DNA of 64,000 nucleotides. Origin: Acidimicrobiia bacterium (GTDB taxonomy: Bacteria > Actinomycetota > Acidimicrobiia > Acidimicrobiales > JANYDT01). A model generated the notes under the pieces. That model was not told where the DNA came from. It was given only the letters and a program-made list of their open reading frames with translations, and made no database searches. Positions 964-36,077 of the stretch are shown here, one piece after another. The translations under genes were made by a program, and so were the position numbers. The stretch's first letter is position 1; the number at the start of each line of letters is the position of its first letter. The stretch spans positions 7,110-71,109 of the forward strand of contig JANOHI010000012.1 in the NCBI GenBank assembly GCA_031406385.1, read 5' to 3'.

Positions 964-1869
964 GTGAGAGTCGACGCCACGGTCATCGGCGCCGGTGGAG
1001 TTCACATCGCGCAACGCGGCGCAGCTGCTCCCGAGCGGAAGGGCGCGCTCCGTGTGGGTCCCGTCGCCGCTGTTCGTCAGCCGATCGACGCCCCGATCGA
1101 ATCGCAGCGCGCAGACCATGTCGTGTGGCGTCGCCTCTGGGCAGGCTCTGGTCGCCTGGTCATCGACTTTGTAGGACTTGCGATCGTGCAGATCGACGAT
1201 GCTGACGGACTGGTGACGTTCGACCGCGCCTTGCCTGCCGACGTTGAGCAACATCTTCTGCTCGATCAGGTACTGCCCCTCGTGCTCGCACGGCGCGGAC
1301 ACCTCGTGTTGCATGGGGCACTGATCAGCCTTGCGGGACGCGGGGTCGTGCTCATCGGCGCATCAGGCGCGGGAAAGTCGACTCTCTCTGCGTTTGCGTG
1401 GACGCGGGGTTGGTCGGTCGGGGGAGATGACGGAACTGTTCTCAGCACAACTCGGCCGCCTCGCGCCGAGCCAACGTACGCCACCGTGCGCCTCACGGAC
1501 GAAGGCGCAGCTCTCCTGGGATTCGACCAAAGTGGGGCGCCCACCGTCGTTGGGAAGACTCGCTTCCAAGGAGATTCGGAGCGTGGACTGCTGTCAGACA
1601 GCGTCACGGTCGATCTGATCGCGGCCATTGAGCCGACGACCGACGGCTCCGCTGCTCGGATGGAATCCATCCGCGGAGTTGCTGCCCATGCGATGCTTTT
1701 TTCATCGACGTTCCATGCCGACGTCGCGATAACGGGCAATCTGCCGACGGTCATGGCTGACCTCGGCCACGTCGTCGAGACGACACGGATTGGGCGGTTG
1801 TTCGTGCCCCGCGGAATTGACGGCCTATCGGCTGCGGAACGCGTTCTGCGCCTCGAGCTCGCGCGCTGA
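964..1869 (+). CDS. HprK-related kinase-like P-loop protein (lasso-cluster kinase type), copy 1
   Basis: A GTG start lies 22 nt after the previous stop. The P-loop GASGAGKSTLSAF followed by GGDDG matches the HPr-kinase C-terminal domain layout. The stop overlaps the next start (TGATG at 1867-1871). Confidence 0.7.
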   Translation: MRVDATVIGAGGVHIAQRGAAAPERKGALRVGPVAAVRQPIDAPIESQRADHVVWRRLWAGSGRLVIDFVGLAIVQIDDADGLVTFDRALPADVEQHLLLDQVLPLVLARRGHLVLHGALISLAGRGVVLIGASGAGKSTLSAFAWTRGWSVGGDDGTVLSTTRPPRAEPTYATVRLTDEGAALLGFDQSGAPTVVGKTRFQGDSERGLLSDSVTVDLIAAIEPTTDGSAARMESIRGVAAHAMLFSSTFHADVAITGNLPTVMADLGHVVETTRIGRLFVPRGIDGLSAAERVLRLELAR

Positions 1870-2327
1870 TGTTGTTGCCGCGTTGGGTGGCCGTCAAACG
1901 ATTCGTCCACGAACTATCCAAAACGACCCGGATGAGCGCGGTCCGCGCCGTCGGCGATGGATGCGTTGTCGCCGTCACGATGAAGCGCCGGGGAGTGCGA
2001 CCACTTCTGACCGGTTTGGGCAGTCGCGGCGACGTCATCGATCCGCTCCGGGCACGGCGTGTCGCCCACGCGGCTGATGCGGGGCTGGGCCTCGTTCCCG
2101 TGCGCCCGACCTGTCTGCGACGCTCCTTGGTGCTGCTTCGGGAGTTGCGGCGGCTCGGGCTGGCCGGGACCTTGCATGTCGGCGTGAGGAGCGAGAATGG
2201 AGTGGTGCTGGCGCATGCGTGGATACAGGTCGGCGACGAAGTGGTCAACGATGACCGCGCAGTCACGGACCGTTTCTCGTCGATCGCAGCCGGGGAGCTC
2301 GAAGACCTTCTGCCCCGGTTCACATGA
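1869..2327 (+). CDS. lasso peptide biosynthesis B2 protein (transglutaminase-like leader peptidase), copy 1
   Basis: 152 aa. The Cys/His/Asp signature PTCLRRSL...LAHAWIQVGDEVVNDD is typical of lasso B2 proteases. An ATGA overlap with the cyclase gene lies at 2324-2327. Confidence 0.85.
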   Translation: MLLPRWVAVKRFVHELSKTTRMSAVRAVGDGCVVAVTMKRRGVRPLLTGLGSRGDVIDPLRARRVAHAADAGLGLVPVRPTCLRRSLVLLRELRRLGLAGTLHVGVRSENGVVLAHAWIQVGDEVVNDDRAVTDRFSSIAAGELEDLLPRFT

Positions 2328-4048: not shown

Positions 4049-4076
4049 GAGTCAGCGAGACGACGGTAATTGTCGG

Positions 4077-4220
4077 CTACGGCCCGCTTTGGCCACAGTC
4101 GCTCATTCCGCCGACCTGAGTGACGTTCATACCGCCGCCGTCCGGGCAGCTGCCGCCCTGACCAAGGGTGAGGCTGCTGAGGGTACCGAACCGCTTCAGT
4201 GTGGGTGTCTTATATACCAT
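4077..4220 (-). CDS. lasso precursor peptide A1 (47 aa: MVYKTPTLKRFGTLSSLTL / GQGGSCPDGGGMNVTQVGGMSDCGQSGP)
   Basis: This is an internal ATG (4220) of the 74-aa ORF, with GGAG 6 nt upstream (4227-4230). The leader fits YxxPxLx3Gx5Tx exactly (Y3,P6,L8,G12,T18). The core starts with Gly and has Asp at position 8. It lies between the cyclase and ABC exporter genes. Confidence 0.75.
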   Translation of the reverse strand: MVYKTPTLKRFGTLSSLTLGQGGSCPDGGGMNVTQVGGMSDCGQSGP

Positions 4221-4327
4221 GAGAGTCTCCTGGTCGACGATGATGAAACGACCATACCTGAACCGGCCACTCTCCGCAACTGATTTTTGTTGTTCAAGCA
4301 CACACTGCGTTCCGACGCAGCCTCATA

Positions 4328-6280
4328 TCAGACCGGCTGTTCGGGCTGGTAGGCCGCCGCCTGGAGATTGAACAACCGGGCGTAGGTGCCATCGAGTTCG
4401 AGCAGCGCCCGATGCGTTCCCGACTCCACGATGTGTCCGGCGTCCAACACATAGATGCGGTCGGCGCTCGAGACGGTGCTGAACCGATGGGAGATCACAA
4501 TGACGGCCTTGCCCGCGCACAGCTGCCGAAGGCTGCCGAACAGCGCGGCTTCAGCGTCGGGGTCAAGCGACGATGACGGTTCGTCCAAGACGACCAGTGC
4601 AGCCTTGCGGAAGAAGGCTCGGGCAATTGCGACCCGCTGCCATTGGCCCAACGAGAGGTCGCGTCCGCCCGTGAACTGGGGGGCAAGAAGTGTGTCGTAT
4701 CCGGCCGGGAATTCCTCGAGGAAGTCAGCCGCTCCGGCGTCGCGTGCGGCCTCCCTCACCGCTTCTCGATCATCGGCGTGCTGCCACCGCCCGAAGCCGA
4801 TGTTCTCCGCTGCCGAGAAGAAGAAGCGGGTGTAGTCCTGGAAGACGAAGGCCACATGTTCGCGGACGCTCACGTCGTCCATCTGCTGAACATCTGAACC
4901 GTTCCACGACACCGTTCCGCGGTCTGCGACATACAGGCCGCCGAGCAGCTTGGCGAGGGTGGTCTTTCCAGACCCATTGGCCCCGACCAGTGCGATGACT
5001 TCACCCGTTCGAACGGTGACGTTCACGTCGACGACAGCGTCGTTCGGAGCATTGGGATAGCGAAACCCGAGTCGGTCGCTGCGAACGGTGAGCGGTTCGT
5101 CGGCGGCAAGATCGAAATGTGCTCGAGCGCTCATCTCGGCCTGACGATTGGCGGCGTCGCCGAGGAATCGGTCGACCTCGTGGAGGAAGGTTGTGCACTC
5201 GAAGATCATGCCGAATCCGCCGATGAGTGATTGCGCTCGTTGCGCCAAGAGCACGATGGCAGCGGCAGCGACCGCACTTTCGGCGATGGTAATCGTGCCC
5301 TCGTCGAGGAGGCGGATGAGGATCGCAAGCGTGCCGCCCATCACCACTGCGCTGATCAGCCGAGCGATCGTTCCGATCGCGAAGCGGCGGCGCCCAACTT
5401 CGCGAAGCCGCTTGATTCGGGCCGACCACAGCCCTGAGTGTCGGCTGGTGAGGTACGACGCAAGGTTGTAGCCCCGGACCTCCTTGGCGGTGTCCTTCTG
5501 ACTCAAGAGGTGAAGGAGGTAGTGGCGCTGTCGCGAGACTTCGGTCTGCTCGACCTCGAAATCGATGTTCAACAGTGTTGCCGCACGCGTCGCCAGCACG
5601 ATCGGAAGCGATCCCGCAAGGGCCACGAACAACAGCGCGGGTTGGATCATCGCCAGCGTGATGGCCACGGCAACCATGGCCAGCAGCGACCCGACCATGC
5701 CGATCAACGCCGTTGCGAGTTGCATAGGCCGAAACGTCGAGTTGGCGAGGACTCGCTCGAGCCGGTTGTGAAACGCCGAGCGGTCGAAGTCGATCAGGTC
5801 GGCTGCGGACGCAGCGCGCACAACGTCCTCCTGTGCCTCGCGAGCGAGCAGATCGGTGACCACCTTTTGCAGCTCCCCGCGCGCCAAGTTGATGATCGCC
5901 GAGATCGTGAGCAGGACAACGACGACCATGGCCCATGGCAGAGCGTCGCCGGCATCGGCGGTCTTGCCGAGGTTGACAACTCTGGTGAGGAGTTGACGAA
6001 TCGCTAGGAGCTGAGCGGCCGCCAGCAGCGAGCTGACGAGCTGAAGGACGGCGACAGCGACGAACTCCCGCCTCGCGGCGCGCATGATCAACCGTAGGGA
6101 CGACCGGAGCAAGGCAGGGAACGCTCGGAGCGAGCGTTTCTGCCGAAGGTCGACGAGCTCGTCGTACGTGAAGGTGTCTAGGTCCAACGGTTCGGGTGCG
6201 GCCGCGGTAGTCGCGCCTGAGGAATTGGCCGAAGCATCCTCGGCAGTTCCGGAGACGCCGCTTTTCATAACGTTCGTCAC
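4328..6280 (-). CDS. ABC exporter, fused permease-ATPase (McjD-like lasso exporter candidate)
   Basis: 650 aa with a multi-TM N-terminal half. It carries Walker A GANGSGKTT, signature LSLGQWQRV and Walker B LVVLDEPSSSLD. Confidence 0.9.
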   Translation of the reverse strand: MTNVMKSGVSGTAEDASANSSGATTAAAPEPLDLDTFTYDELVDLRQKRSLRAFPALLRSSLRLIMRAARREFVAVAVLQLVSSLLAAAQLLAIRQLLTRVVNLGKTADAGDALPWAMVVVVLLTISAIINLARGELQKVVTDLLAREAQEDVVRAASAADLIDFDRSAFHNRLERVLANSTFRPMQLATALIGMVGSLLAMVAVAITLAMIQPALLFVALAGSLPIVLATRAATLLNIDFEVEQTEVSRQRHYLLHLLSQKDTAKEVRGYNLASYLTSRHSGLWSARIKRLREVGRRRFAIGTIARLISAVVMGGTLAILIRLLDEGTITIAESAVAAAAIVLLAQRAQSLIGGFGMIFECTTFLHEVDRFLGDAANRQAEMSARAHFDLAADEPLTVRSDRLGFRYPNAPNDAVVDVNVTVRTGEVIALVGANGSGKTTLAKLLGGLYVADRGTVSWNGSDVQQMDDVSVREHVAFVFQDYTRFFFSAAENIGFGRWQHADDREAVREAARDAGAADFLEEFPAGYDTLLAPQFTGGRDLSLGQWQRVAIARAFFRKAALVVLDEPSSSLDPDAEAALFGSLRQLCAGKAVIVISHRFSTVSSADRIYVLDAGHIVESGTHRALLELDGTYARLFNLQAAAYQPEQPV

Positions 6281-9300: not shown

Positions 9301-10404
9301 GCCATCACATTCCCAGCGAGAACCGCCAAGGCCGTGCGTCTCAAAGTCTTGCGGGTGAACTTCAGTGGTTATGCGGGAGGCGCAAAGCCTTGGTTCTGGC
9401 CGCCGCCGGGCAGCCCGGATCTCGAACTTCCGGGATACGCGCTCTATGGCCCGGCGATCATCCGAGAGCTCGAGGTGTATGCCGCGACAGCTACAGGCCC
9501 GGCGCCTGCGACGACCACGTCATCAAGCTCTACGACTACGACCTTCGGAACATCGACCACGACGTCGCTGATCCCGCCGAGCACCACGAGCAGCACTGTG
9601 GCCCCTGCACCTTCTACGAGCGTGCTCACGGTTCCGGGTGTGGTGAGCACGATCGGACCGACGAGCTCTGTGGCGCCGTCAGTCACGCCGTCATCCATAC
9701 CCTCGACAACGTCCACTTCGCTCACGCCGAGCAGTTCCACGTCAGCTCCACCGACCACGACCACTGCACCGAGCTCGTCGACCACGACCACACCACCGAC
9801 CACCACCACTGCACCGAGCACCACCACTGCACCGACCACGACCACACCGACCACGACCACTCCACCGACCACGACCACTCCACCGACCACCAGCGCACCG
9901 ACCACGACCACTCCGCCGGCCACGAGCGCACCGGCCCTGACAGTCCCGGTGTACGTGTACACGCCGCCCCCGGGACAGACGTCACTGAGGCTGCCGCCAC
10001 TTTCGCCTCCCGAGCCCGTCGGGAATCCTGCTCCGCCATCCTCGACCAGTACGCCAACGACGATCACGAGCATTCCCGAGCCTCTGGTCTTTGCCACGGG
10101 CCGTACCGATGTGATTGTGACAAACACCTTAAATGCCGCGGGAGTGACTTCGGCGGTGCCGACCTCCACCAGCGCCAAGCGAAGGACATCCACGACGATT
10201 CCGTCGTTGCTCCCCCTGGTTCCGGCGCGCAAGGAATCCGCAAGCAAAACTCTTCCTCGCAAAGCGAGCCCGACAACGACGGCCCCGAAGGCCAAGAGGA
10301 AGGCCGCAGCGACCTCATCGCGCGCTGCGTCCCGCAAAGCCGTTCGCCAGACGACCCGGACCACGTCTCGTTCAACAACACGCGTCTCCACTCCGAATCG
10401 CTGA
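6400..10404 (+). CDS. large secreted multidomain protein: clan GH-A-like glycoside hydrolase + discoidin (F5/8 type C)-like domain + Thr/Pro/Ser-rich tail
   Basis: It has an N-terminal TM/signal (LWLGVITLVALATLIPVI). The motifs YWEAWNEPN and PIWITEFAF match the acid/base and nucleophile Glu contexts of clan GH-A. A discoidin-like segment ends at VRLKVLRVNF. A ~300-aa T/P/S-rich tail ends in a Lys/Arg-rich stretch. Confidence 0.8.
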   Translation: MSIDRRTGNPLSKAPRGLWLGVITLVALATLIPVIDSIVSTVRVSAAAPESTQASPAVLTPSPYSVAPCGVLRPADEPSSPTIVLKPRVVSASIRPDAMVSFDSGLVLVDGAGSKMMGLATDGTVRWSYATNTDSSAGDRGSLAVDPSGSTYRVKYPNEVLKLSPTGQTLWTATLSSPIARIFGTVVQGTWRVVVVTSTSTRVLSMAGADVGSAPVSGRSSTPTGDGGLLVSDGTYVRKYRPSFVPQSVFGSPYKDNDPMPEGAPLHFYQQGDAVELLDGRILVGDGGWGVWLVDSRGLVLGLVPTAELGGLTEQPKLVIIGSELYYTAGAKFTNDQKVLALPISDLVARAVQNGGGARLGFGAGLVTSVAGNYFAPGSPATVELELDAWWGSIGAASLQYTVRRSSEVAADAPAITQSMAIAPGARQALALPPPVPGAYEVDARLLVDGTPVGATCLHYAIGAPGHSLNMATLPPGADAGGPSGPRGVALADELGTGSHRITLHWNRLLDPAGLTTFDNYDAEIKAAAAESARRGVPFSVQLGEGGVERAFVDNGTWENRTREVVAHWAPYVDYWEAWNEPNITFGSAAAYVDQVLVPFRRAVRAADPGARVIGGSPVGMSIQYFREIGQAGGFNSMDIVAIHPYTGHNRSWEEEGVPGRIQELKAILTSNGKSAMPIWITEFAFWSNGPANWFAQADKSARVVIWNKALASGVWQYFLPEGSWGNDGVTFSAIETGGPVKPAALALMETKNQLTGRTFSGWITTNTPHTYAARFGPAPGGNDQLVVLWADDQSLDGTLSTDRALDATLIDQYGASGPLALSETETKLTFRSSVQYVRLPADADLSISAGSAWGKNLAATEAGGVAVASSSSPWNPPSAAIDGIADARGVGEFPGSPAWASAVGDPLPTLTVTLSPSASVNTVLFSTAGLGSVLSGVRDIDVEVQASDGTWAYVGGVRDLFFERASAITFPARTAKAVRLKVLRVNFSGYAGGAKPWFWPPPGSPDLELPGYALYGPAIIRELEVYAATATGPAPATTTSSSSTTTTFGTSTTTSLIPPSTTSSTVAPAPSTSVLTVPGVVSTIGPTSSVAPSVTPSSIPSTTSTSLTPSSSTSAPPTTTTAPSSSTTTTPPTTTTAPSTTTAPTTTTPTTTTPPTTTTPPTTSAPTTTTPPATSAPALTVPVYVYTPPPGQTSLRLPPLSPPEPVGNPAPPSSTSTPTTITSIPEPLVFATGRTDVIVTNTLNAAGVTSAVPTSTSAKRRTSTTIPSLLPLVPARKESASKTLPRKASPTTTAPKAKRKAAATSSRAASRKAVRQTTRTTSRSTTRVSTPNR
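9745..9925 (+). repeat. imperfect short tandem repeats (ACCACGACCAC / CCGACCACC units) encoding the (T)nP(P) linker
   Basis: Reiterated ccgaccacgaccac(t/a)cc units are visible. They translate to TTTTPPTTTTAPSTTTAPTTTTPTTTTPPTTTTPP. Confidence 0.8.
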
Positions 10405-10488: not shown

Positions 10489-11619
10489 TCATGTTCGCGC
10501 CTCGAGCAGTCTCTCGATTTGCCTCATAATCTCCGTCCACTCGTACGGTGCGGCTGCTTGAGGTGCCTTCGACGACCACGCTGCGAGGGTGTCGCCACTC
10601 AGTGCGTCGCCGAGCAGCAGCGCCAATTCATCTACATCGTCGGGGTTTTGTTGGAGCAGTCCCGCACCAGAACCGGCGATCGCTGAAGCCGCTCCTGCAA
10701 GGCTGGTCGTTATCACTGGTATCCCCATGGCGAGTGCTTCGACGATCACGATGCCGAACGGCTCGTACTGGGTCGGGAGTAGAAAGAGATCGGCAGCGGC
10801 GAAGGACTTCCCGACGTCGTTGGTCGGGCCGTGCCAACGCACGCGGCCCTCGAGGCCGAGCTGCTGGATAAGCCGGGCGTAGTCGGAGATGTCGGCCTTG
10901 CCCACCACGTGGACCTCGACGCGTTGATCGGCGGTGAGTGCGACCGCCCGCAAGAGCACCCCGAAACCCTTTCGGTGAAGTTCGTTGCCGACGAAGAGCA
11001 CTGCGATGGCTTCGTCGGCGATGCCCATGGCTGCCCGGGAGGACGCACGTTCGCTGACGCGTCGCTCGGCCGAGAACTCGGAAGCACTGAATCCGTTGGG
11101 TATCACCACGATCGCTGATGGATCGACCCCGTAGTGCGCGATCAGGTCCGCCTTCACCTGTTCGCCGACGACCACGACCTTTCGAGACCCAGAGGCCCTG
11201 AAGTAGATCCGCTCGAGGCGCAGAAGGGTTCGGTGGCGAGGCATCAAGAATCGAACCCATGCGGGTATCGACAGTCCTTTGACCGGGATAGGTCGGCCTG
11301 CCCGGAGCCACGCTCGGTGCACGCTTCCGACCATCAACAAATCACCGGGGGGGCAGTTCGCACCGAGAGTCACCACGCGATCGACCCCGATCGTGCGCAA
11401 CGCCTCGGCGGCAAGATTGCGGAACTTCGCCGGGCGTTGAGCATCGGCGCGCTCAATCTCGATATGGCGGATTCCGGCCGGCAGGAGTTCGGGCGACTCC
11501 AGTTCCCCTCCGACGAACCACGTGGTGTGTCGTTCGCCGAGATGCCGCAACAACTCCCAGGCGACGCGTTCGACCCCGCCCCGTCGGTGGGCGCCACTGA
11601 ACACCACGGCGACCTTCAC
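10489..11619 (-). CDS. glycosyltransferase family 4
   Basis: 376 aa with a GTG start. It has the N-terminal MKVAVVFSGAHRRGGVERV and the C-terminal GT-B motif EPFGIVIVEALAMGIPVITT. A GTGA overlap with the upstream GT4 gene lies at 11616-11619. Confidence 0.9.
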   Translation of the reverse strand: MKVAVVFSGAHRRGGVERVAWELLRHLGERHTTWFVGGELESPELLPAGIRHIEIERADAQRPAKFRNLAAEALRTIGVDRVVTLGANCPPGDLLMVGSVHRAWLRAGRPIPVKGLSIPAWVRFLMPRHRTLLRLERIYFRASGSRKVVVVGEQVKADLIAHYGVDPSAIVVIPNGFSASEFSAERRVSERASSRAAMGIADEAIAVLFVGNELHRKGFGVLLRAVALTADQRVEVHVVGKADISDYARLIQQLGLEGRVRWHGPTNDVGKSFAAADLFLLPTQYEPFGIVIVEALAMGIPVITTSLAGAASAIAGSGAGLLQQNPDDVDELALLLGDALSGDTLAAWSSKAPQAAAPYEWTEIMRQIERLLEART

Positions 11620-12701
11620 GCGCAGACCGACCGATAGAGCGCGGCGAGCTTGTCCGCGTGCGTCTCAATCGAGTAGCGCTCGCGCTGAACTGCCTGGAGC
11701 CGGGCACCCAGTTGGGGCCGGTCCGGGCGCTCGGCCGTGTGGCGCAGCGCAGCCCCCAACGCGTCGGGATCACCTGCCGGGTAGAGCAGTTCGGGGAAAT
11801 CCCGAAGTATCTCCCGGTGGCCTCCACCGTCGGCGGCCAGCACCACAAGACCGTCGGCCATCGATTCGGCGACGCTGAGCCCAAATGGTTCGTCTGATCG
11901 GGGGGCGAGTTGAAACGCCGATGCCGCCCGGATCGGACAAAGGTCGGTCTGAGCTCCAACGAACTGAACCGAACCTTTCACTCCCAAGGTGCCGGCCAGT
12001 CGTTCCAGCGATGGGCGCTCTGCTCCATCGCCGGCGATGACCAGTCGCCAACCTTCGCTCCCGAGCTGGGAGCGCGCCCATCCACGGATCGCTTCATCGG
12101 TTCGCTTCTCGCGTTCGAGGCGCTGCGCAACCAGCACCTGTCTTCCGGCGTTCGGGACGAGTTCGGCGCTCGCAACGCCGTTTGGGATGACGATTGTGGT
12201 TCCCGGGACCCGTTGAGCCACATAGTCGCTGATTGCGATCTGCGCAGACAGCCGTGACGAAATGAAACGATCGGCGGAGCGGGGAATTCCGCGTGACTGA
12301 GCAAAGTGAAGTGTCGCAACCACCCGTGATCGCCGCAGTGCGCTCACTCCCACGGCAACCATCTCTGCTGCGGTCATGTGGGCGTGGATGACATCCGCCC
12401 GACCGCTTCGCAGCAGCGCGTACGCAACTGCTGGGGAACTCGTCGCCTCCCGGTGTTTGACGCTCTGGGGCAGTGCTGAACGCATGCGGACGGGATCTCC
12501 CCCGATCACTTCCACGGCGAACCCGCGTGCGACCAGTGCCGGGGCCACCATCGTTATGTACCGTTCGACACCGGCAAATGCGTCGGATCGCACGACGTGG
12601 ACTACTCGCATGGACGGATGCTTCTCATCCCCGTCGTCGTCGTCTGCCCGGCCCTGCCACGTTCGCACGCTATCGGGGCTTCGGTATTCGTCGGACAACA
12701 C
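11616..12701 (-). CDS. glycosyltransferase family 4 (start may be the internal ATG at 12611, MRVVHVV..)
   Basis: It carries MRVVHVVRSDAFAGVERY and EPFGLSVAESMADGLVVLAADGGGHREIL. The longest start lies 3 nt after the stop of the cyclase-like gene. Confidence 0.85.
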   Translation of the reverse strand: MLSDEYRSPDSVRTWQGRADDDDGDEKHPSMRVVHVVRSDAFAGVERYITMVAPALVARGFAVEVIGGDPVRMRSALPQSVKHREATSSPAVAYALLRSGRADVIHAHMTAAEMVAVGVSALRRSRVVATLHFAQSRGIPRSADRFISSRLSAQIAISDYVAQRVPGTTIVIPNGVASAELVPNAGRQVLVAQRLEREKRTDEAIRGWARSQLGSEGWRLVIAGDGAERPSLERLAGTLGVKGSVQFVGAQTDLCPIRAASAFQLAPRSDEPFGLSVAESMADGLVVLAADGGGHREILRDFPELLYPAGDPDALGAALRHTAERPDRPQLGARLQAVQRERYSIETHADKLAALYRSVCA

Positions 12702-13914: not shown

Positions 13915-14103
13915 CTACGACGCAAATTGAAACCCGCCAACACCATTGGGAAGATCTCCTGGCTGCAAGGGTCCGCCCTGGACCGAGTAGAAACCGTCGG
14001 ATTTCGGGAAGAGCGGAGACTGCGCCAGCGTGAGGTCCTGCACAGACCCGAGGGTCTGGATCGCGGGAGCTTCGTAGGGCAGCTTGCTAGAGGAGTTGTT
14101 CAT
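13915..14103 (-). CDS. lasso-type precursor peptide A2 (62 aa: MNNSSSKLPYEAPAIQTLGSVQDLTL / AQSPLFPKSDGFYSVQGGPLQPGDLPNGVGGFQFAS)
   Basis: The leader fits YxxPxLx3Gx5Tx (Y10,P13,I15,G19,T25) and aligns position by position with the A1 leader, including the shared LTL(G/A)Q junction. It sits directly upstream of the cyclase-like gene. The C-terminal residue is Ser. Confidence 0.7.
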   Translation of the reverse strand: MNNSSSKLPYEAPAIQTLGSVQDLTLAQSPLFPKSDGFYSVQGGPLQPGDLPNGVGGFQFAS

Positions 14104-14145: not shown

Positions 14146-14664
14146 GTGTCCCCTAGGGGATTGCGCTATCCACTAGGCCGAGGAGCCGGGCCTAGGGTGC
14201 TCCAGGTGGAGCTCGTCGAGACCCTTTCCGCGTTGTGCCGAACCTGTGGCTCGTGCTGCGATGGCTCACTGTTCGAGCTCGTAGTGCCGTCGGAGGGGGA
14301 CCTCTTCGAGGTTCGCCAGCCGTGCGAATTCCTTGCGGACCTGACGTGTCAACGGTACCTCGAGCGCCCTCGGTCGTGCCGGAAGTTCCACTGCGGCGTT
14401 CTCGGCAGATTCGCAGATGGGAGCAGTTCCGCAGACGAGGCTGGAGATGCGATCCGGAAGTTTCGTGAGGTCGTTTCCGACTTGTCCGCTCGCCTTCCGG
14501 GCGATCCCGGGAAGGCATTGGCTCGCCGTATCTATGAGTCCGAGCCAGAGTTGATGCTGAGGGCGCGAAACGGTGAGTCCGTTGCCGTCGATACGCTGTT
14601 TCTCGTCGCCGGCTACCGCGAACTCAGGCTGCGATTCATTGGTTCCTCTGACTGGAACGGATGA
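14146..14664 (+). CDS. YkgJ/CxxCxxCC-family cysteine-cluster protein (start possibly GTG at 14197)
   Basis: CRTCGSCCDGSLF ... CEFL..CQRYLERPRSCRKFHC matches the putative zinc/iron-chelating CxxCxxCC domain pattern. AGGAG at 14181-14185 favours the 14197 start. Confidence 0.7.
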   Translation: MSPRGLRYPLGRGAGPRVLQVELVETLSALCRTCGSCCDGSLFELVVPSEGDLFEVRQPCEFLADLTCQRYLERPRSCRKFHCGVLGRFADGSSSADEAGDAIRKFREVVSDLSARLPGDPGKALARRIYESEPELMLRARNGESVAVDTLFLVAGYRELRLRFIGSSDWNG

Positions 14665-15634
14665 TCCCGCCGGACGGTGAACCGCTCACGATGTTCGCCA
14701 CTGCCTCGAACAGCTCCGCGTTGCGCTCTCGATCGTAAGCATCAGCCCACGGCACGTCCATCACGGCGACCGGCAACCGTGCGGACAGCGCAGTCGCCGC
14801 TTGGAACTCCTGCATTTGATAGGTCGGTCCGCTCCACCCGATGAGACGAGACGACGGGAGCAACCAACGAAGTGCCTCGAGGGGGTCGGCAATCCGCAAG
14901 GTCACTTCAGAGGCGTCTCGGGACGCCCGAGGGATCACAATGCCAGCGAGCTCACCCGAACCGTTGTCGATCGCCTCTGGTCTAACGGCGATCCGGCCAT
15001 CGGCGGTACGGCGCACGACCCCGCGTATGTGATCCGCCAGGTAGCCTGCCCTTTCGCGGAGGCGAAGTTCGACGAGACCGGTCGACACGGTGAGCGAGCC
15101 GATGCCTTGGATGTTCTGAACGCAGGAAACATCGTCGGCGACCAGTTTCGCACCTTCGGATATCAGGGTTGCGGCCACCGTGCTCTTGCCGACCCCCGAA
15201 GGACCGGCGATGGCCACTCGAAATCCGTTGATCGCGACCGTCGTTGCGTGGAGGCAGTACGCACCCCTCAGGGTGGTGAGCGCGGCGAAGACCGCCCCCT
15301 GGAGTAGCACTGCGGCGAAGTCCGCATCATCGCCTGGCGTGAGCACCACCCGGACGGAGCGCAATTGCTCGTCCACCCAGAAGTCCGCATGGCCCGCATA
15401 GCGCATGCAGTATCCGCTCGTCGGTGTGCGAGTGATCGTGAGTGGCCAGTGCAGCGGCGAGTCGAACAACTGCTCGCCGACGGGCGGGTCCTCCGGTACT
15501 TCGGCCCATTCGATCGGCCCTACCGAAACGTCCGCTGGGCCCGACGTCTCCAGCGCGGAGATGCGAAGGCTTGATGTAACGGCCAAACCGTGCAACGAAT
15601 ACGTCGACGGTTCGTCCGAGAGGTCAGTTCTCAC
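14636..15634 (-). CDS. HprK-related kinase-like P-loop protein, copy 2
   Basis: 332 aa. The P-loop IAGPSGVGKSTVAATL followed by VADDV gives the same architecture as the 964-1869 product. Confidence 0.75.
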   Translation of the reverse strand: MRTDLSDEPSTYSLHGLAVTSSLRISALETSGPADVSVGPIEWAEVPEDPPVGEQLFDSPLHWPLTITRTPTSGYCMRYAGHADFWVDEQLRSVRVVLTPGDDADFAAVLLQGAVFAALTTLRGAYCLHATTVAINGFRVAIAGPSGVGKSTVAATLISEGAKLVADDVSCVQNIQGIGSLTVSTGLVELRLRERAGYLADHIRGVVRRTADGRIAVRPEAIDNGSGELAGIVIPRASRDASEVTLRIADPLEALRWLLPSSRLIGWSGPTYQMQEFQAATALSARLPVAVMDVPWADAYDRERNAELFEAVANIVSGSPSGGIIRSSQRNQ

Positions 15635-15949: not shown

Positions 15950-16222
15950 GTGGAACGCACGTATCAACTGAGGAAGGCCGAACTCACCTGGCGCGAAGTC
16001 GGCGACGCCATCGTGATCTTGGATCTGTCCGATTCTTCGTACCTGTCGGTCAGCGGAGCGGGACGCGTGATTTGGGACCGCCTCGACAGCGGCGCAACGC
16101 TCGCCGAACTGGTGGCCGCCGTGGTGGAAGTGTTCGACGTGAGCGAAGCGTTGGCCGCCTCGGACACGTCGTCGTTCCTCGATGCGCTGGAGGATCGCAA
16201 ACTCCTTGTTGCCCGGGCCTAG
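15950..16222 (+). CDS. PqqD-family protein (stand-alone RiPP recognition element / lasso B1)
   Basis: 90 aa with a GTG start and GGAG 5 nt upstream (15941-15944). AIVILDLSDSSYLSVSGAGRVIWDRLDSGATLAELVAAVVEVFDV..A..D..SFLDALEDRKLL is the classic PqqD pattern. Confidence 0.8.
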   Translation: MERTYQLRKAELTWREVGDAIVILDLSDSSYLSVSGAGRVIWDRLDSGATLAELVAAVVEVFDVSEALAASDTSSFLDALEDRKLLVARA

Positions 16223-16833
16223 TTCTTCGCCTTGGCGTCAGGCTCGGCCAAGAGTCCGAGCTCGTGCGCCCGTGCCATCGCTTGGGCCCGGTTGCGCACG
16301 TCGATCTTGCGGAACAACAACCGTTGGGTGTTCTCGACCGTCTTGATGGCGATACCCAGCGTCCGAGCCGTCTGCTTGACCGATTCGCCCCTTTCGATGG
16401 AACGGAGCAGGTCGAGCTCACGCCCCGAGATCGAGATCGGTGAGATCGGTTCTGGATTGCCGCTCCGCAGCGCACCGCACAGCGAATCGACCTGCAACTC
16501 GGTCAGCACGGCCCGACCATCCGCAGCAGTGTGAACCGCCCGAATCAGCGCCTCGACGGTTTCGTCGTCTGCGACCACTGCGAGGGCGCCGGAGCGAACG
16601 GCTCGGAGGAGTTCGGCACCATCCGGTGCGGACCGAACAGCGAGGACGGCCTTCGGGGAACGCGGAGTCAACCCGGCGAGAAGATCAGTGCCTTCAGTGC
16701 CTGTCACGACCACGACATCAGCTGCGTCGGCATCGGCCAGGACCACGTGCTCATCCAACACGCGCGCCAGCAGTGCGACCAGCAGAGGTTGGTTGCCAAC
16801 GACTGCCGCCGATGGCCGCGCCGGCCTCGTCAC
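16219..16833 (-). CDS. LuxR/NarL-type HTH regulator with degenerate receiver-like N-terminal domain
   Basis: The C-terminal HTH reads ISGRELDLLRSIERGESVKQTARTLGIAIKTVENTQRLLFRKIDVRNRAQA. The proposed GTG start at 16833 overlaps the upstream stop (GTGA, 16830-16833). The longer 282-aa ORF would overlap the upstream gene. Confidence 0.75.
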   Translation of the reverse strand: MTRPARPSAAVVGNQPLLVALLARVLDEHVVLADADAADVVVVTGTEGTDLLAGLTPRSPKAVLAVRSAPDGAELLRAVRSGALAVVADDETVEALIRAVHTAADGRAVLTELQVDSLCGALRSGNPEPISPISISGRELDLLRSIERGESVKQTARTLGIAIKTVENTQRLLFRKIDVRNRAQAMARAHELGLLAEPDAKAKN

Positions 16834-17471
16834 GAAGCAACCTCGGTCTGGGTGAGCAGCCCGAGCCGAATTGCTGTGGCGACAGCCTGTGACTGACTCT
16901 GAACCCCGAGGCGTCGGAATACGCGCTGCTTGTGGTTCTCGATGGTTCGGTGACTTACCCCGAGCGCTTCGGCCATGTGCCTGGAGGTGTGCCCCCGGGC
17001 CAGCAGGTGCAATACCTCGAGCTCCCGGGCGGTGAGCGGGACAGGGCCGAGACGGGGCGCCTCCCATCGGCGCAGCGTGCGCTGAGCCGGATCGATCACT
17101 GCCCTCACTAGGACAGCTTCCCCGGAGGCCTCGTCGACGAAGGAGTCGAAACCATCAGACAGCGCGCTCGCCAGTTCGGCGACGGACAGGCTGGCGTGCA
17201 CGCCGACGATACGTGCGGCCGGCGCGGCGGACCGAACCGCCCGGGCTGCAGCTCGCCACTGCGCCTCCGATCCAGTTCGCTGCCCGCCTTGATGGATCAC
17301 CACGATGTCGGGTTCGAGAGCTGCGAGATCGGCCATGGACGTCGGCTCGGTGGCGGCGACGACCTGCAGCCCGGCCGCAACGTCGAAGAGCAACTCGAGG
17401 CCTCGCCGCCACCAGTGAGAAGGGTCGACGATTGCGAGACGGAGGGGAGGCGCCACCGATGACTCTTTCAT
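16830..17471 (-). CDS. LuxR/NarL-type response-regulator-like protein lacking the canonical phospho-acceptor Asp
   Basis: The HTH reads LTARELEVLHLLARGHTSRHMAEALGVSHRTIENHKQRVFRRLGV. The receiver-like N-terminus reads RLAIVDPS..PDIVVIHQGG, where DIVVIH replaces the usual D-x-V-L-x-D. Confidence 0.8.
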   Translation of the reverse strand: MKESSVAPPLRLAIVDPSHWWRRGLELLFDVAAGLQVVAATEPTSMADLAALEPDIVVIHQGGQRTGSEAQWRAAARAVRSAAPAARIVGVHASLSVAELASALSDGFDSFVDEASGEAVLVRAVIDPAQRTLRRWEAPRLGPVPLTARELEVLHLLARGHTSRHMAEALGVSHRTIENHKQRVFRRLGVQSQSQAVATAIRLGLLTQTEVAS

Positions 17472-17998: not shown

Positions 17999-19279
17999 GT
18001 GTGTTCCTGCAAGAACGCACTCCAAGGCGAACGACCGGTGGCTCTTCCGGAGTCTGCCCTGTCCGAGCTCTTCGACGCGTTTCGCACTGGTGGTGACGGT
18101 GTCGCCCTGACACGAGACGCGGTGCGTCTCGTGATGCAGGAGTTGATCGAGTCCGAAGCGACCGGCGTGATCGGCGCCGAAGCCCATGAACGCGCGGCCA
18201 CACGCACGAACGAACGTAACGGGCACCGTGACCGGCTGCTGTCGACCAAGGCCGGTGAAGTGGAGCTGCGCATCCCGAAATTACGCCGTGGCTCGTTCTT
18301 CCCGAGCATCTTGGAACCCCGCCGCCGTATCGACCAGGCCCCGTACGCGGTAGTCATGACCGCTTACGTGAACGGTGTATCGACTCGCGCCGTCGACGAC
18401 CTGGTCGCCGCGTTGGGCGTCGATACGGGCATCTCCAAGTCGGAGGTGTCCCGGATCTGCAAACGCCTCGACGAACATGTCGACGCGTTCCGGAACCGGC
18501 CCGTGGGCCACACTTCCTTCCCGTACGTCTACCTCGTTGCCACCAACGTCAACGTCCGCGACACCGCCCTCGGCCAGGTCGTGTCCAAGGCCATCGTGAT
18601 CGCCACCGGCATCACTGCCGGCGGTGACCGTCAAATCCTCGGCCCCGCCGTCGGTGACTCGGAATCCGAAGCGTGCTGGGGCGAGTGCTGCCGGTCGTTG
18701 CGCCGCCGCAAGCTGGACGGGGTGCGGCTCGTCATCTACGACGCCCACGAAGGCCTCAAAGCGGCGATCCGCAAACACTTCACCGGCGCGTCATGGCAAC
18801 GCTGCCGGGTGCATCTCGCCCGCAACCTGCTGCCGCGCGTCCCGAAAGGCCCACCAGGACACGGTCGCCGCAGCGTTCCGGATGGTGTTCATGCATCCCG
18901 ACCCGGCCGCCGTCACCGCGGCGTGGGCGACACCACCAAACTCCTCACGAAACAGTTCCCCCGCGTCGCGGAACTCATGACCTCGGCCAAGACCGACGTC
19001 CTCGCATTCTGTCCGTTCCCGCCCGAACACTGGCGCAAGATCTGGTCAAACAACCCGCTCGAGCGACTCAACAAGGAAGTGAAACGACGCTCGAACGTCG
19101 TGCAGATCTTCCCCGACGAAGCCTCCGTGATCCGACTCGTCGGCGCCATACTCGCCGAACAACACAACGAATGGACCACCGCCCGCCACTACCTCTCCGA
19201 AGGCTCAATGGCGAAACTCAACCTCGAGCGCGAAACTCCATCCCTGTCAGTCGGCGAACTCATCAACGGCCAACCGTAA
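17999..19279 (+). mobile_element. IS256-family (mutator-type) transposase gene, apparently degenerate
   Basis: It has strong family motifs (ERNGHRDRLLSTKAGEVELRIPKLRRGSFFPSILEPRRR, VSTRAVDDLV, IWSNNPLERLNKEVKRR). The first catalytic Asp context reads YVYLVATNVNVR instead of YLDAT. The conserved segment KAHQDTVAAAFRMVFMHPDPAAVTAAW lies in another frame between ~18845 and ~18935, which implies two compensating frameshifts. Confidence 0.8.
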
Positions 19280-20532: not shown

Positions 20533-20682
20533 CCAACCAGGCGGTGCCTGAACAGGGTGAAGAATCGCCCGGCGGTGTTCTCAGCAGGCCGAACGGCCGG
20601 GCCGCTTTCGTCAAGCACTACGCTTCATTCGGTGGTTCTTGCTGACGATCGCTCGGCTCGTGGAAGCGGAAGGGGCGGCTCG

Positions 20683-28544: not shown

Positions 28545-29999
28545 ATGAGTCGAGGACGCAAGAATCAGCCTCGGCTTCTCCCTGCCCGAGTGACGGACCC
28601 CCTTCGCTACAGTAGTGGCGTGCTCGCTGGTGCCCTATCCGGATGGAACCGGACCAACCAGTGGCGCATTCGTCGGGCAGGCACACTCGCCGCAGCGATT
28701 GTGGCGCTGCAAGTCACGGTCGGTTGGTTGCTCTCCAACGACATGAATGCGGCGATCGCCGCTTCGGTTCTCATTCCCGCAGTTGCCGTGCTCGTCATTC
28801 GTCCGCAGTGGTTGTGGATTACTGCCTTCCCGGCGAACTTTCTTTACTGGCGTGTCGGCCCGACACGCATCGACCTCAGCCTTGCGGACGTTACCCTCGT
28901 CCTGGCCGCTATCGCCGCGCTCCCGTCCGTCCCCTGGCGGTCCCCGATGTTGCACCGGATCGAACGGCTCTACGCCGCGTACCTGGGGATCATGTCGATC
29001 GCGTTCTTCGCTGTGCCGGAGCGCGAGACCCTAATTTCGTTGATGCAGCGAAGCTCAATTTTTCTGGGTGCGGTTCTCATCGGGGCCGCAGTTGGCAACC
29101 GCGGCAAGGCGAAGGCCGCGCTGGCCGCGCTGCTCCTCGGTTCGAGTGCTGTCGCAATCGAAGCAGTACGCCGCTCCGTTCAGTCTGATTTCGAGCCCGC
29201 CTATCCGTTCGGAATCCAAAAGAACGCGGCCGGCGCCATAATTGGTATGAGCATTATCGTGTCGTTGGCGGCATTCACCATCTTCCGTCGCACAGCGACC
29301 AACCGAGTAGCCATCGGACTCTGCCAATTGCTTCTGATCTGCGGGCTCCTCGCTACAGGAGCACGAGGTGCCGCCGTCGCCCTTCTGGCAACGCTCCTCG
29401 TCGCCGTGTTGCGCAATGAGCCAGGCGCTCGTCGGCCGATCGCTATTGCAGTCCTCGGATGTGTCACCGTCGTGGCCATGGCAACCATAAGATCGGTGGA
29501 CTCGGAAAAGACGAACGATCGCTTCTCCAGTGGCAATAGCCGCTTGATCACGTACGAAGCGGCAATCAAGCTGTGGCAACAGGAGAAGCTCACCGGTATC
29601 GGGATCAAGTACTGGCGAAATCCGGCATATGCCGACAACACGGGCTTCGGCGAGCCCCACAACGTCTTCGTCTCATCGCTGACCGAGACTGGCGTGGTCG
29701 GACTCGTTGCGATCCTCCTGCTGATGGGCGGCACGCTCTTGATCGCGATGCGTCCACGAACCCCGCTCCATCGAATGGCATTCTTGCTCATCGTGTACCG
29801 ACTTGTTGAGAGTCAGTTCGGGATCCTCTGGGTTGCCGTCGGAGGGTCCCTTCCCTGGCTTGTTCTCGGTGCGGCGATCGGCGCAGCGTATGCCGATACC
29901 GATCGACAACGCCTCGCGGCGGAGTCGGAAACAGTTTCAACAAACGTGCTGCGCCCGCGAATCTACCGACCGCGCACCCTGCCAACTGCGGCGAGATAA
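28545..29999 (+). CDS. O-antigen ligase / Wzy-like polytopic membrane protein, copy 1 (start uncertain)
   Basis: It is predicted to have about 10 or more TM segments. The characteristic loop reads LLICGLLATGARGAAVALLATLL and the periplasmic loop reads ITYEAAIKLWQQEKLTGIGIKYW. Confidence 0.8.
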   Translation: MSRGRKNQPRLLPARVTDPLRYSSGVLAGALSGWNRTNQWRIRRAGTLAAAIVALQVTVGWLLSNDMNAAIAASVLIPAVAVLVIRPQWLWITAFPANFLYWRVGPTRIDLSLADVTLVLAAIAALPSVPWRSPMLHRIERLYAAYLGIMSIAFFAVPERETLISLMQRSSIFLGAVLIGAAVGNRGKAKAALAALLLGSSAVAIEAVRRSVQSDFEPAYPFGIQKNAAGAIIGMSIIVSLAAFTIFRRTATNRVAIGLCQLLLICGLLATGARGAAVALLATLLVAVLRNEPGARRPIAIAVLGCVTVVAMATIRSVDSEKTNDRFSSGNSRLITYEAAIKLWQQEKLTGIGIKYWRNPAYADNTGFGEPHNVFVSSLTETGVVGLVAILLLMGGTLLIAMRPRTPLHRMAFLLIVYRLVESQFGILWVAVGGSLPWLVLGAAIGAAYADTDRQRLAAESETVSTNVLRPRIYRPRTLPTAAR

Positions 30000-31153
30000 G
30001 CCTCTCGAAAGGCAGACGAACCTCCGTGGGGTTGGGGAGCGGGGAGAGCGATCAGTTCGGTGGTCGAAGGAAACCGTCGCCGCCATGGGTGCCCCGAATC
30101 CGTTCGGAACACACCGACTTCCGTCTTCACGCGACCGACAAGTTGTCGAACGGATTCACGGGAGTTTGCTCTGGTCGCGCCACAGAGCAAGTGACCGGTG
30201 AGCGAACCGCCATGCCAACGCTCGGGCGGACGGACTCGGTCGAGGCCGGCAACGACATCTGGCCAACGCCCCCGACCGCACATCGACGCTTCCAGGCGCT
30301 GGTCCCACGGCACCACGCCGAGAGCCCGGCGGACCTTGCCGAGCATGACGCCGACGGGTAATCCGATTCGTTGTTGGTGCGCCCGCCGCACAACCTCGTC
30401 GAAGTCCATCGCCGGAATCGCACCGGCGAGGCTGAGGTCGCGCATCCACGAAAGCTTTTGCCCGCCGGCAAGACATGCATGGAGCGCGAGGTGGAGGAAG
30501 GTATCGACCGGGTCGAGCGTCGGCACATCAATCCGGGGGAGGAGATGAGCCCTGACTCGACGCTCCAGTGCCGCACCATCGCTGAACGCGAATTGCGAAC
30601 GAAGGGTCGAGTCGTAGAGAAGGCTCCAGTGAAGGTCGACAACGACGCGCGTTGAGAGAGCGAAGTTGAGCTCACCCTTCAACTCGTGCAGGACAAGCTC
30701 CCAATCCGTTTCCAGCCCAGAACCGCCGAGGTTCTCGATCGCCTCTACCGCGGTAGTGAAATCAGCACGTTCGACAAGGACGTCGAGATCGGCGTAGCTA
30801 CGCAAGTCGTTGCGTCGGTAGAGACGCTCGGACAGCACAGGGCCCTTCAGCGTCAGCCATCGAACCCCGGCGCCATCGAGCACCTTCGCAAGTCGAGCCA
30901 ACTCGAGGATCATCACGAGGTGGTGCATCTTCCAGAACTCGTAGATCGACCGGAGCTGTTCTCGTAACGACTCCGGAATGTCCGCGTCGACGAGGCCCAG
31001 GTGCACGGCCATCGAGATGCCGTGATGGCTGGCCGCTTCAGCCACGTGTTGCAGACTGCCCCGTGCGTCGTCAACCAGTTCGGAGGGGACGGGCTCGCCA
31101 TCGCTCATCGTGCACGCGACGAGCAGACGGCCGAGGGCGCGTGCTTCACCCAT
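29963..31153 (-). CDS. nucleotidyltransferase family protein (NTP_transf_5 / PsmN-like type)
   Basis: WLTLKGPVLSERLYRRNDLRSYADLDVLV is the hallmark block of the uncharacterised nucleotidyltransferase family often seen next to HprK-like kinases. The start overlaps the upstream GT4 stop by 8 nt. Confidence 0.75.
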   Translation of the reverse strand: MGEARALGRLLVACTMSDGEPVPSELVDDARGSLQHVAEAASHHGISMAVHLGLVDADIPESLREQLRSIYEFWKMHHLVMILELARLAKVLDGAGVRWLTLKGPVLSERLYRRNDLRSYADLDVLVERADFTTAVEAIENLGGSGLETDWELVLHELKGELNFALSTRVVVDLHWSLLYDSTLRSQFAFSDGAALERRVRAHLLPRIDVPTLDPVDTFLHLALHACLAGGQKLSWMRDLSLAGAIPAMDFDEVVRRAHQQRIGLPVGVMLGKVRRALGVVPWDQRLEASMCGRGRWPDVVAGLDRVRPPERWHGGSLTGHLLCGATRANSRESVRQLVGRVKTEVGVFRTDSGHPWRRRFPSTTELIALPAPQPHGGSSAFREAYLAAVGRVRGR

Positions 31154-35444: not shown

Positions 35445-35445
35445 G

Positions 35446-35892
35446 TCAGCCGAGCAGGGGCTGATCGAACGCGTGGAGCTGCGCCACGTGCTGGGGGTCT
35501 TCGTTGATGTCGGTTCCGGCCACCCGGACCCACGCATGTGCACCGAGACCTTCCTGCGTCGGGTCGACGCCGAGCAGCACCTGGGCGTCGACGCCTCGGC
35601 GACGCAGAAGCGTCCAGAGGGTGAGTGATCGGGGCAGACAGACTACGTTTGCCGGAGCGAGCCGGGTGGCGAGGAGCACGCCCGTTCCGATCCTTCGGGC
35701 GCGGTGAACGTCGTAGCGGTCCGACGGGTGGATCCTCCCGCGTCCGCCCAGCCGGACGGCGAGTTGACGTGCTGGGATCGTCCCTCGCCGGTGAAGCACG
35801 CGTTCGAACAGCGGGTTGAGGGCGAGGGCGGCGAGGAACGCGAGCTGGCTCCCCCGGGGCAGCGCGACGAAGCGACGGAGGCGTGAACGCAT
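35446..35892 (-). CDS. lasso peptide biosynthesis B2 protein (transglutaminase-like protease), copy 2
   Basis: VVCLPRSLTLWTLLRRRGVDAQVLLGV...GAHAWVRVAGTDINED gives the same Cys/His/Asp layout as the 1869-2327 product. ATG at 35892 gives 148 aa, and longer starts up to 35988 are possible. Confidence 0.8.
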   Translation of the reverse strand: MRSRLRRFVALPRGSQLAFLAALALNPLFERVLHRRGTIPARQLAVRLGGRGRIHPSDRYDVHRARRIGTGVLLATRLAPANVVCLPRSLTLWTLLRRRGVDAQVLLGVDPTQEGLGAHAWVRVAGTDINEDPQHVAQLHAFDQPLLG

Positions 35893-36077
35893 CCTGGTCT
35901 GAGGGACCGAAGGGTCGGTCGACCCGACGTTTCTCATGCCCGGGCAACGGTAGTCGCCGGAATTCCGCCGGTACGATGGGCCGAGCATGAGTTCCCCTCA
36001 ACGCATCGGGTACTCGCCGGTAGGAACCGAACCGCCTGTTCCTCGGCCGACCCCCCGCCGATGACCGAGGGGCAACG

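Follow-up and report, generated by a model that had tools for sequence, protein, structure and literature searches.

A lasso peptide precursor gene with a conserved aspartate at core position 10, beside a short candidate cyclase, in an acidimicrobial genome

We studied a stretch of 64,000 nucleotides (the window) from the genome of an Acidimicrobiia bacterium (GenBank assembly GCA_031406385.1, contig JANOHI010000012.1, positions 7,110 to 71,109). The window has an actinobacterial-type GC content of 64.5% and encodes two putative precursors of lasso peptides, A1 and A2. Our subject is A2 (13915..14103, minus strand) and the adjacent gene C2 (12705..13883, minus strand), which begins 31 nucleotides downstream of A2 and encodes a putative cyclase of only 392 amino acids. 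We propose that the product of A2 has a ring of ten residues.

The precursor A2 and its neighbor C2

The A2 open reading frame (ORF) starts at the first ATG that follows an in-frame stop codon, and its 62 codons translate to MNNSSSKLPYEAPAIQTLGSVQDLTLAQSPLFPKSDGFYSVQGGPLQPGDLPNGVGGFQFAS. Residues 1–26 (nucleotides 14026-14103) are the leader, YEAPAIQTLGSVQDLTL; residues 27–62 (13918-14025) are the core; and the stop codon is at 13915-13917. Tyr10, Pro13, Ile15, Gly19, and Thr25 form the pattern Y..P.I...G.....T, which puts YxxPxI at positions -17 to -12 and Thr at position -2. The published register for lasso leaders has YxxPxL at -17 to -12 and Thr at -2 (PMC10368454). Because the register and Thr(-2) both place the cleavage before Ala27, we divide A2 into the leader MNNSSSKLPYEAPAIQTLGSVQDLTL and the core AQSPLFPKSDGFYSVQGGPLQPGDLPNGVGGFQFAS. 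The leader scores just above the cut-off for the NCBIfam model lasso_leader_L3 (19.2 versus 19 bits). A first-pass annotation, which was made from the DNA alone, described the leader of A2 as canonical and aligned it with that of A1 (4077..4220, minus strand), and we agree: in A1, the leader MVYKTPTLKRFGTLSSLTL precedes the core GQGGSCPDGGG... in the same register. In a six-frame translation of the whole window, a strict leader pattern matches A1 and A2 only. The LTL(G/A)Q pattern, searched for in the DNA, has 2 matches, with 0.09 expected.

The core has 36 amino acids. Only two of these are acidic, namely Asp10 (codon 13996-13998) and Asp24, with no Glu, and the last residue is Ser36, all of which the first-pass annotation had read correctly. 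So A2 lacks the usual acceptor, an acidic residue (Asp or Glu) at one of the core positions 7, 8, and 9; its first acidic residue is Asp10. The tail of 26 residues is rich in Gly and Pro and has few bulky residues.

A2 is probably not annotated in its own source record, as we found no identical entry when we compared A2 to a protein collection, even though the neighboring genes (P0001 and P0041) have entries at 99–100% identity. A scan for promoters and terminators around A2 gave no signal that exceeded the expectation from shuffled sequences.

Orthologous small ORFs are found upstream of orthologous cyclases in other assemblies. The closest relative, L001, is from a metagenome-assembled genome; its cyclase is 86% identical to C2 and its precursor ORF has the same length as A2. 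The two precursor genes differ by 13 synonymous and 11 non-synonymous codon changes (GC content at third codon positions, 0.71). The leader is unchanged from Lys7 onward except for Ala14Val, and Ala1 and Pro7–Gly11, around the ring Asp, are unchanged as well. The other orthologues are P0033 (79% identity to A2), P0034 (71%), P0035 (46%; the precursor of loci L165-167), and P0040 (44%; the precursor of locus L171). This clade of six peptides represents four lineages: the window with L001 and P0033; P0034; P0035; and P0040.

All six peptides have Thr(-2), Ala1, and Asp10-Gly11-Phe/Tyr12-Tyr13 (A-x8-D-G-F/Y-Y), and the spacing from the cleavage site to Asp10 is identical, without any change in length. 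In an alignment of ten peptides (A3, the clade and its nearest outgroups), the invariant columns besides Met1 are Tyr10, Pro13, Gly19, Thr25, Asp36 (which is core Asp10), and one Gly in the tail. Asp10 is the sole invariant acidic residue within the clade; Asp24 is replaced by Asn in L165. P0040 has Pro in place of Lys8 and no Lys before Asp10, and therefore Ala1 provides the only amine that is N-terminal of Asp10 in that peptide.

The nearest outgroup peptides have Ala or Gly at position 1 and Asp at position 9, and aligning them to the clade requires a one-residue gap in the ring segment. Their cores are ANNFASQSDGVF (L002), ANNFARDGDGVT (L169), GRKVFAPLDGVV (L170), and AAQIFNSNDNIV (L168). 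Every short cyclase that is at least 46% identical to C2 has an Asp10 core as its partner, and those that rank next (36–44%) have Asp9 cores. We consider A2 to be a genuine, conserved precursor gene of the lasso type, and we take the spacing of Asp10 to be a stable, selected feature of the clade and not a recent slip.

C2 has a single Pfam domain, Asn_synthase (PF00733; 55.8 bits, residues 41–344), which is the synthetase (PP-loop) domain. The motifs SGGxDS (in the PP-loop F-S-G-G-x-D-S-S) and GEGGDE are invariant in its family. When aligned to E. coli AsnB, a profile built from 25 members of the family matches only from around residue 205, which is where the synthetase domain starts, so we conclude that the N-terminal glutaminase-like domain is missing. 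That domain is present in C1 (2324..4048, plus strand), the window's own full-length lasso cyclase of 574 amino acids. An AlphaFold2 model of C2 was confident (pLDDT, the predicted local distance difference test score, of 88.7), and its best structural matches were beta-lactam synthetase, TsnB9, AsnB and other asparagine synthetases, and carbapenam synthetase. All of these relatives form an amide by first converting a carboxylate to an acyl-adenylate.

Short putative cyclases and the position of the ring aspartate

We found 29 short homologues of C2 (326–433 amino acids) in the protein collection. Pattern scans of genomes and metagenomes identified 160 loci with a short cyclase, nearly all of them from Actinomycetota. 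The cultured hosts belong to Isoptericola, Tessaracoccus, Microbacterium, Nocardioides, Luteimicrobium, Cellulosimicrobium, Amycolatopsis, and Occultella. We also considered that C2 might be a truncated pseudogene, but this is ruled out by the 29 homologues of similar length, the 160 loci, the invariant PP-loop, and the confident model.

The commonest gene order at these loci is PqqD, the precursor (A), the short cyclase (C), the leader peptidase B2, and an HprK-like gene. We counted gene content in the loci that span 14 kb or more, of which there are 70. In 63 of the 70, the asparagine synthetase ORFs are exclusively short, even if their starts are extended as far as possible. PqqD and B2 are both present in 48 of these 63 loci, an HprK-like gene in 59, an NTP_transf_5 gene in 36, and an ABC exporter in 52. 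Because 48 otherwise complete lasso clusters offer no other candidate for the cyclase, the short homologues of asparagine synthetase, including C2, likely act as lasso cyclases. Given its presence in 59 of the 63 loci, the HprK-like protein might be an obligate partner of the short cyclase as well as a tailoring enzyme.

The spacing of the ring Asp varies across the family. We collected 146 distinct cores that are encoded within 3.5 kb of a short cyclase and located the first acidic residue from position 7 onward. It lies at position 7–9 in 94 cores, at position 10 in 23, and at positions 11–31 in 28, with one core having none (a few cores in the last groups are spurious ORFs). In about a third of the precursors beside short cyclases, then, the first ring-range acidic residue comes after position 9. 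Asp10 also occurs in several lineages with Gly or Ala at position 1 that lie outside the A2 clade, such as L135 and L026, which are within an otherwise Asp9 family.

In most of the other non-canonical cores, a Lys precedes the Asp by exactly six residues (K-x5-D). This is the case for 34 of 51 non-canonical cores and for 53 of 145 overall, as compared to 3–11 at other offsets. In about 35 K-x5-D cores, the first ring-range acidic residue is at position 10–24, and the N-terminal extension is 3 to 17 residues. The extension often has a Cys that is matched by another Cys near the C-terminus, as in QIDKKFNATDGLTFMG and SHQGWCVPVLEKTIGPPDYFVWIPITTCST. Examples of these loci (among L005-L164) are at 6803-7086 of L048, around 8081-8221 of L072, 10013-10327 of L063, and 9996-10420 of L082. 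The K-x5-D cores pair with their own clade of cyclases. The pattern may fit a second cleavage or a lactam that uses the Lys side chain. If these loci lacked B2, then a ring through the Lys amine would be forced; this idea was ruled out, as a domain-level hidden Markov model (HMM) finds B2 in 14 of 15 large loci. (An earlier HMM for B2 was contaminated by fusions of B2 to kinases.) Overall, the geometry of the ring is unusually plastic in the short-cyclase family, which could reflect larger rings, extra trimming, or Lys-side-chain lactams. This plasticity gives reason to treat the unusual spacing in A2 as meaningful.

A different arrangement is found in P0039 (199 amino acids), which has four tandem units that resemble lasso leaders (YEPPRLxxLGSxxxLT). 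After each unit comes a short segment that is acidic and rich in Ser, and P0039 may be a precursor with multiple cores.

A proposed pathway and its alternatives

Working by homology from the observed sequence features, gene content, and conservation, we propose that A2 is the precursor of a paeninodin-like peptide, that is, a lasso-type RiPP (a ribosomally synthesized peptide that is post-translationally modified) that is associated with a kinase and an NTP transferase, and that its product has a ten-residue macrolactam between Ala1 and Asp10. We give this proposal a probability of roughly 50%. The leader would be recognized, via its YxxPxI motif, by a PqqD-type RiPP recognition element (RRE; lasso protein B1; 15950..16222, plus strand). 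This is the only PqqD in the window (Pfam PqqD, 50.9 bits). It is 51% identical to the PqqD of L171 and matches the NCBIfam models for lasso PqqD chaperones, but below their cut-offs. Ser36 of the linear precursor would then be phosphorylated by the candidate kinase, an HprK-like protein (14636..15634, minus strand) with the P-loop GPSGVGKST (Pfam Hpr_kinase_C, 39.4 bits, and matches to HprK-related models of NCBIfam). Next, a transglutaminase-like B2 peptidase, guided by Thr(-2), would cut after Leu26 and free Ala1. The candidate is at 35446..35988 (minus strand; Pfam Transglut_core3, 73 bits; NCBIfam lasso_biosyn_B2, 64.7 bits versus a cut-off of 33). Since the leaders of A1 and A2 are alike, the second B2, from the cluster of A1 and C1 (cluster 1; 1869..2327, plus strand; 62.7 bits for lasso_biosyn_B2), is a possible alternative. 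The Cys, His, and Asp of the peptidase motifs are present in both B2 proteins, and neither gene adjoins A2. C2 would adenylate the side chain of Asp10 and couple it to the amine of Ala1 to form the macrolactam. The phosphate may be decorated by an NTP_transf_5 nucleotidyltransferase (29963..31153, minus strand; 120.3 bits), which is a homologue of an L171 gene and is of the type known from the clusters for pseudomycoidin and paeninodin, together with neighboring glycosyltransferases. Finally, the product would be exported by an ABC transporter. The only intact ABC exporter near either precursor (4328..6280, minus strand) is 48% identical to the exporter of L171.

By analogy to these clusters, the product most likely has a phosphorylated, and possibly glycosylated, Ser at its C-terminus. 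In paeninodin-type clusters, the kinase phosphorylates the precursor at its C-terminal Ser, and in pseudomycoidin the phosphate is extended (PMC8498205), which parallels the NTP transferase and the glycosyltransferases in the window. The first-pass annotation had related Ser36 to the substrate rule of these kinases. This idea gains from the HprK-like gene 0.5 kb from A2 and from the C-terminal Ser in five of the six clade members and in 88 of the 146 family cores, but it is not general even within the clade, as P0040 ends otherwise. Also, a kinase of the Bsf subfamily modifies a Ser in the ring instead (PMC10368454), so the phosphorylation site in A2 is not certain.

Several points weigh against our proposal. 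All of the natural lasso peptides that have been reported have their acceptor at position 7, 8, or 9 and rings of 7–9 residues (PMC12214591, PMC10368454). In the literature up to 2025-26, we found no natural lasso peptide with a ten-residue ring, only an engineered variant of fusilassin. (The "unprecedented ring structure" in a title on metanodin concerns an Asn at position 1 and not the size of the ring.) C2 lacks the N-terminal domain of the characterized lasso cyclases and scores far below the cut-offs of all NCBIfam models for lasso or macrolactam cyclases (25.6 bits versus 300). The literature that we searched contained no characterized member of the short family and nothing relevant on short lasso cyclases. 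In a simple neighbor-joining tree, the cyclases of the window, L001, and L165 form one clade, and the cyclase of L171 is not sister to that clade. Instead, L171 is basal to a group that includes both the clade and the enzymes for Asp9 peptides that begin with Ala; therefore, the ten-residue spacing is either old or arose twice. Because the tail has few bulky residues (in L165, there are none after Tyr13 except for Ile20/21), it is doubtful that the tail would be threaded stably through a ten-residue ring. And the pathway could be impaired in this genome, where its genes are spread across about 25 kb and a transposase and a remnant of an ABC exporter lie between them. On the other hand, the actinobacterial enzymes for fusilassin yielded an unnatural ten-residue ring (bioRxiv 10.1101/2020.11.25.399105), so such a macrolactam is chemically feasible.

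The product would stay within the known range of ring sizes if the ring were formed by Gln2 and Asp10, either because B2 cleaves after Ala27 or because Ala1 is removed later. The nearest outgroups do make rings from position 1 to Asp9, and since, in many cores of the short-cyclase family, a fixed K-x5-D follows an N-terminal extension whose length varies, extra trimming could occur. But a shifted cleavage conflicts with the YxxPxL register and with Thr(-2), both of which predict a cut before Ala. It also does not explain why Ala1 is invariant across the six clade peptides while position 2 is variable. The first-pass annotation had suggested that the cores might start at a "conserved" Gln, but position 2 is Gln in the window's peptide alone, and the orthologues have Lys or Ser. 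Furthermore, 73 of the 94 canonical cores in the family begin with Gly or Ala, and the clusters do not share a conserved aminopeptidase gene. So we think that a standard nine-residue ring is quite unlikely. The first-pass annotation had listed a ten-residue ring and an unconventional product as its other options, and the spacing of Thr(-2), Ala1, and Asp10 in four lineages favors the ten-residue ring.

We also considered that there might not be an N-terminal macrolactam at all. The product could be a linear phosphopeptide or glycopeptide, or C2 might amidate a side chain or link two side chains in a lactam. This would fit with C2's lack of the N-terminal domain and its failure to match the models of lasso cyclases, and with the length of the core (36 residues, rich in Gly and Pro). 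There are known pathways with an RRE, an HprK-like kinase, and an NTP transferase whose products are linear, and these are also found in polysaccharide loci (PMC13381572). And the enrichment of K-x5-D in the sister clades, whatever the length of the N-terminus, suggests that some members may use the amine of Lys. However, the A2 clade has no Lys at this position, and in P0040 no Lys precedes Asp10. The leader of A2 is of the lasso type, with Thr(-2), and does not have the YxxPxVLxHQxIxFETxxS motif of the pathways with linear products; B2 peptidases are present; and the 48 otherwise complete clusters with no other homologue of asparagine synthetase have mostly canonical cores. An N-terminal lactam also predicts an invariant Asp at a fixed distance from the cleavage site, which is what we see. 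Overall, a product without an N-terminal lactam seems unlikely.

Another concern is that the A2 system might be a decaying remnant, with an intact precursor gene but a pathway that was broken by rearrangement and makes no mature product. In L171, the genes are compact: Wzy_C, NTP_transf_5, HprK-like, B2, A, short C, and PqqD are on one strand in that order, with B2 directly upstream of the precursor, and an ABC exporter, a DUF4012 gene, and glycosyltransferases adjoin them on the opposite strand. With tblastn, the stretch from 4 to 38 kb of the window shows homologues of all the L171 genes except B2, and the window's B2 genes were identified by domain models. By homology, then, the window holds an L171-type system in dispersed form, with B2 and NTP_transf_5 at 16–21 kb from A2. 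An IS256-type (Mutator family) transposase (17999-19279, plus strand; Pfam, 395.6 bits) and the C-terminal remnant of a second ABC exporter (22484-22678, plus strand; 65 residues, 63% identical to the exporter of L171) suggest that a compact ancestral cluster was broken up. Nevertheless, each of the individual genes is an intact ORF with conserved catalytic motifs, and the substitutions relative to L001 spare the leader and the ring. The arrangement of A2, C2, and a glycosyltransferase, along with the nearby PqqD, HprK-like, and Cys-rich genes, is shared by L001, whose recovered part contains no transposase; and dispersal within a single locus does not preclude function. We view decay as improbable.

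Our proposal for A2 can be compared to several known systems. The clusters for paeninodin and pseudomycoidin in Bacillota, and related clusters in Proteobacteria, also have separate B1 (PqqD) and B2 proteins, an enzyme of the asparagine synthetase type, an HprK-like kinase, an NTP_transf_5-type nucleotidyltransferase, an ABC exporter, and a precursor that ends in Ser, and those of Bacilli are reported to lie in capsular or exopolysaccharide loci. The A2 system differs in having an actinobacterial host, a cyclase of 392 amino acids with the synthetase domain only, an acceptor at position 10 instead of 7–9, a core of 36 residues, and genes that are dispersed over about 25 kb. The systems for linear polyphosphorylated peptides (LPP) in Bacillota (Popov et al. 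2026, PMC13381572) share the RRE, the HprK-like kinase, the NTP transferase, the exporter, the YxxP motif in the leader, and the location in polysaccharide loci. But the LPP clusters include a SipW-like signal peptidase and lack a cyclase or B2, while A2 has a Thr(-2) leader without HQxIxFET and is accompanied by a homologue of asparagine synthetase and by B2 genes; the homologue beside A2 speaks against membership in the LPP family. Like A2, the fusilassin system of Thermobifida fusca is actinobacterial, and its enzymes made a variant ring with one extra residue; but that ten-residue ring is unnatural and was made by a full-length cyclase, whereas the ten-residue spacing is the conserved native state of the A2 clade. 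Finally, A1 is a canonical class II actinobacterial lasso precursor. It shares with A2 the leader motif, Thr(-2), Gly or Ala at position 1, and an aromatic residue soon after the ring Asp, but it pairs Gly1 and Asp8 with a cyclase of 574 amino acids, instead of Ala1 and Asp10 with a short cyclase.

More broadly, we tentatively suggest, at somewhat less than even odds, that natural lasso peptides with Ala1–Asp10 rings are made by a minimal cyclase that has only the synthetase domain, and that they belong to a large, unrecognized, HprK-associated branch in Actinomycetota that is often found in polysaccharide loci and whose ring geometry extends beyond 7–9 residues. If the ten-residue ring is real, then it widens the known ring sizes of a scaffold that is much used in peptide engineering, and one must ask how a wider ring would hold the thread, if it does so at all. 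Similarly, if the short enzymes are cyclases, then the N-terminal domain of lasso cyclases is dispensable, and the short family offers a small, tractable enzyme for studies of mechanism and for engineering. Genome-mining tools such as RODEO assume that the acceptor is at position 7–9, and the conserved Asp10 clade, as well as its neighbors with later acceptors, would be missed or mis-scored by mining that is based on this range. Structure predictors build in the same rule (PMC12214591).

The polysaccharide-type locus and cluster 1

The genes for the A2 system lie within a large polysaccharide-type locus (10489-38372) that includes several glycosyltransferases of families GT4, GT2, and GT61. 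Directly downstream of C2 is a GT4 glycosyltransferase (11616..12701, minus strand) that is 46% identical to a glycosyltransferase from the compact cluster of L171, followed by a second GT4 glycosyltransferase (10489..11619, minus strand). The locus also encodes two Wzy_C proteins (28545-29999 and 34014-35543), two P-loop proteins of the CbiA/ParA type (20557-22329 and 32206-34065) that may be homologues of chain-length regulators or tyrosine kinases, and a DUF4012 protein (36078-38372). The latter gene adjoins B2, as it does in L171. Searches with relaxed patterns near this B2 or NTP_transf_5 did not find a third precursor. The short cyclase, the dispersed B2 and NTP transferase genes, and the polysaccharide context were absent from the first-pass annotation.

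The association with polysaccharide genes is also seen in L002, L165, L169, and L171. Across 85 large loci, single-seed searches showed only partial co-occurrence, with GT4 in 26 and Wzy_C in 4. The link between short-cyclase loci and polysaccharides is recurrent but not universal. The paeninodin-like clusters of Bacilli likewise lie in capsular or exopolysaccharide loci (PMC13381572, PMC8498205). The recurrence of polysaccharide loci, kinase, and NTP transferase ties the A2-type peptides to the unexplained biology of the paeninodin-like and LPP systems. L169 has two precursors (ANNFARDGDGV... and ASSIGSRCDGA...) at 1118-6047, and its glycosyltransferase and NTP_transf_5 genes there flank a gene for a 2OG-Fe(II) oxygenase.

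Divergent from A2 is a gene for a Cys-rich protein of the CxxCxxCC type (14146..14664, plus strand; the public annotation starts later and gives 155 amino acids). It contains CRTCGSCCDG...C...C...C..C and has a weak match to CxxCxxCC/YcgN-like proteins. We found only three homologues, all of them close, among 5.8 billion proteins. The gene is kept only in the lineages of the window, L001, and L165-167, and it is absent from L171. Between A2 and the Cys-rich gene is a perfect palindrome, CCCCTAGGGG (14150-14159). It lies within a block of 21 nucleotides, GCGCAATCCCCTAGGGGACAC, that does not differ between the window and L001, its flanks having diverged. The palindrome may be an operator for two adjacent regulators of the LuxR/GerE type (16219..17471, minus strand, with ORFs at 16219-17067 and 16830-17471, whose starts are uncertain). 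These regulators are adjacent in L001 as well.

The two lasso clusters are separated by a gene at 6400-10404 (plus strand) for a predicted secreted protein of 1,334 amino acids, which has a long C-terminal region that is rich in Thr, Pro, and Ser and no match in Pfam. In cluster 1, A1 (GQGGSCPDGGGMNVTQVGGMSDCGQSGP) has two Cys residues, at positions 6 and 23, and does not end in Ser. We saw no PqqD gene there, so cluster 1 may share the PqqD at 15950-16222 with A2. At 3-941 and 964-1869 (both on the plus strand), cluster 1 also has a protein with a C-terminal subdomain of the PRMT (arginine methyltransferase) type (a weak match, 21.9 bits) beside an HprK-like gene of its own.

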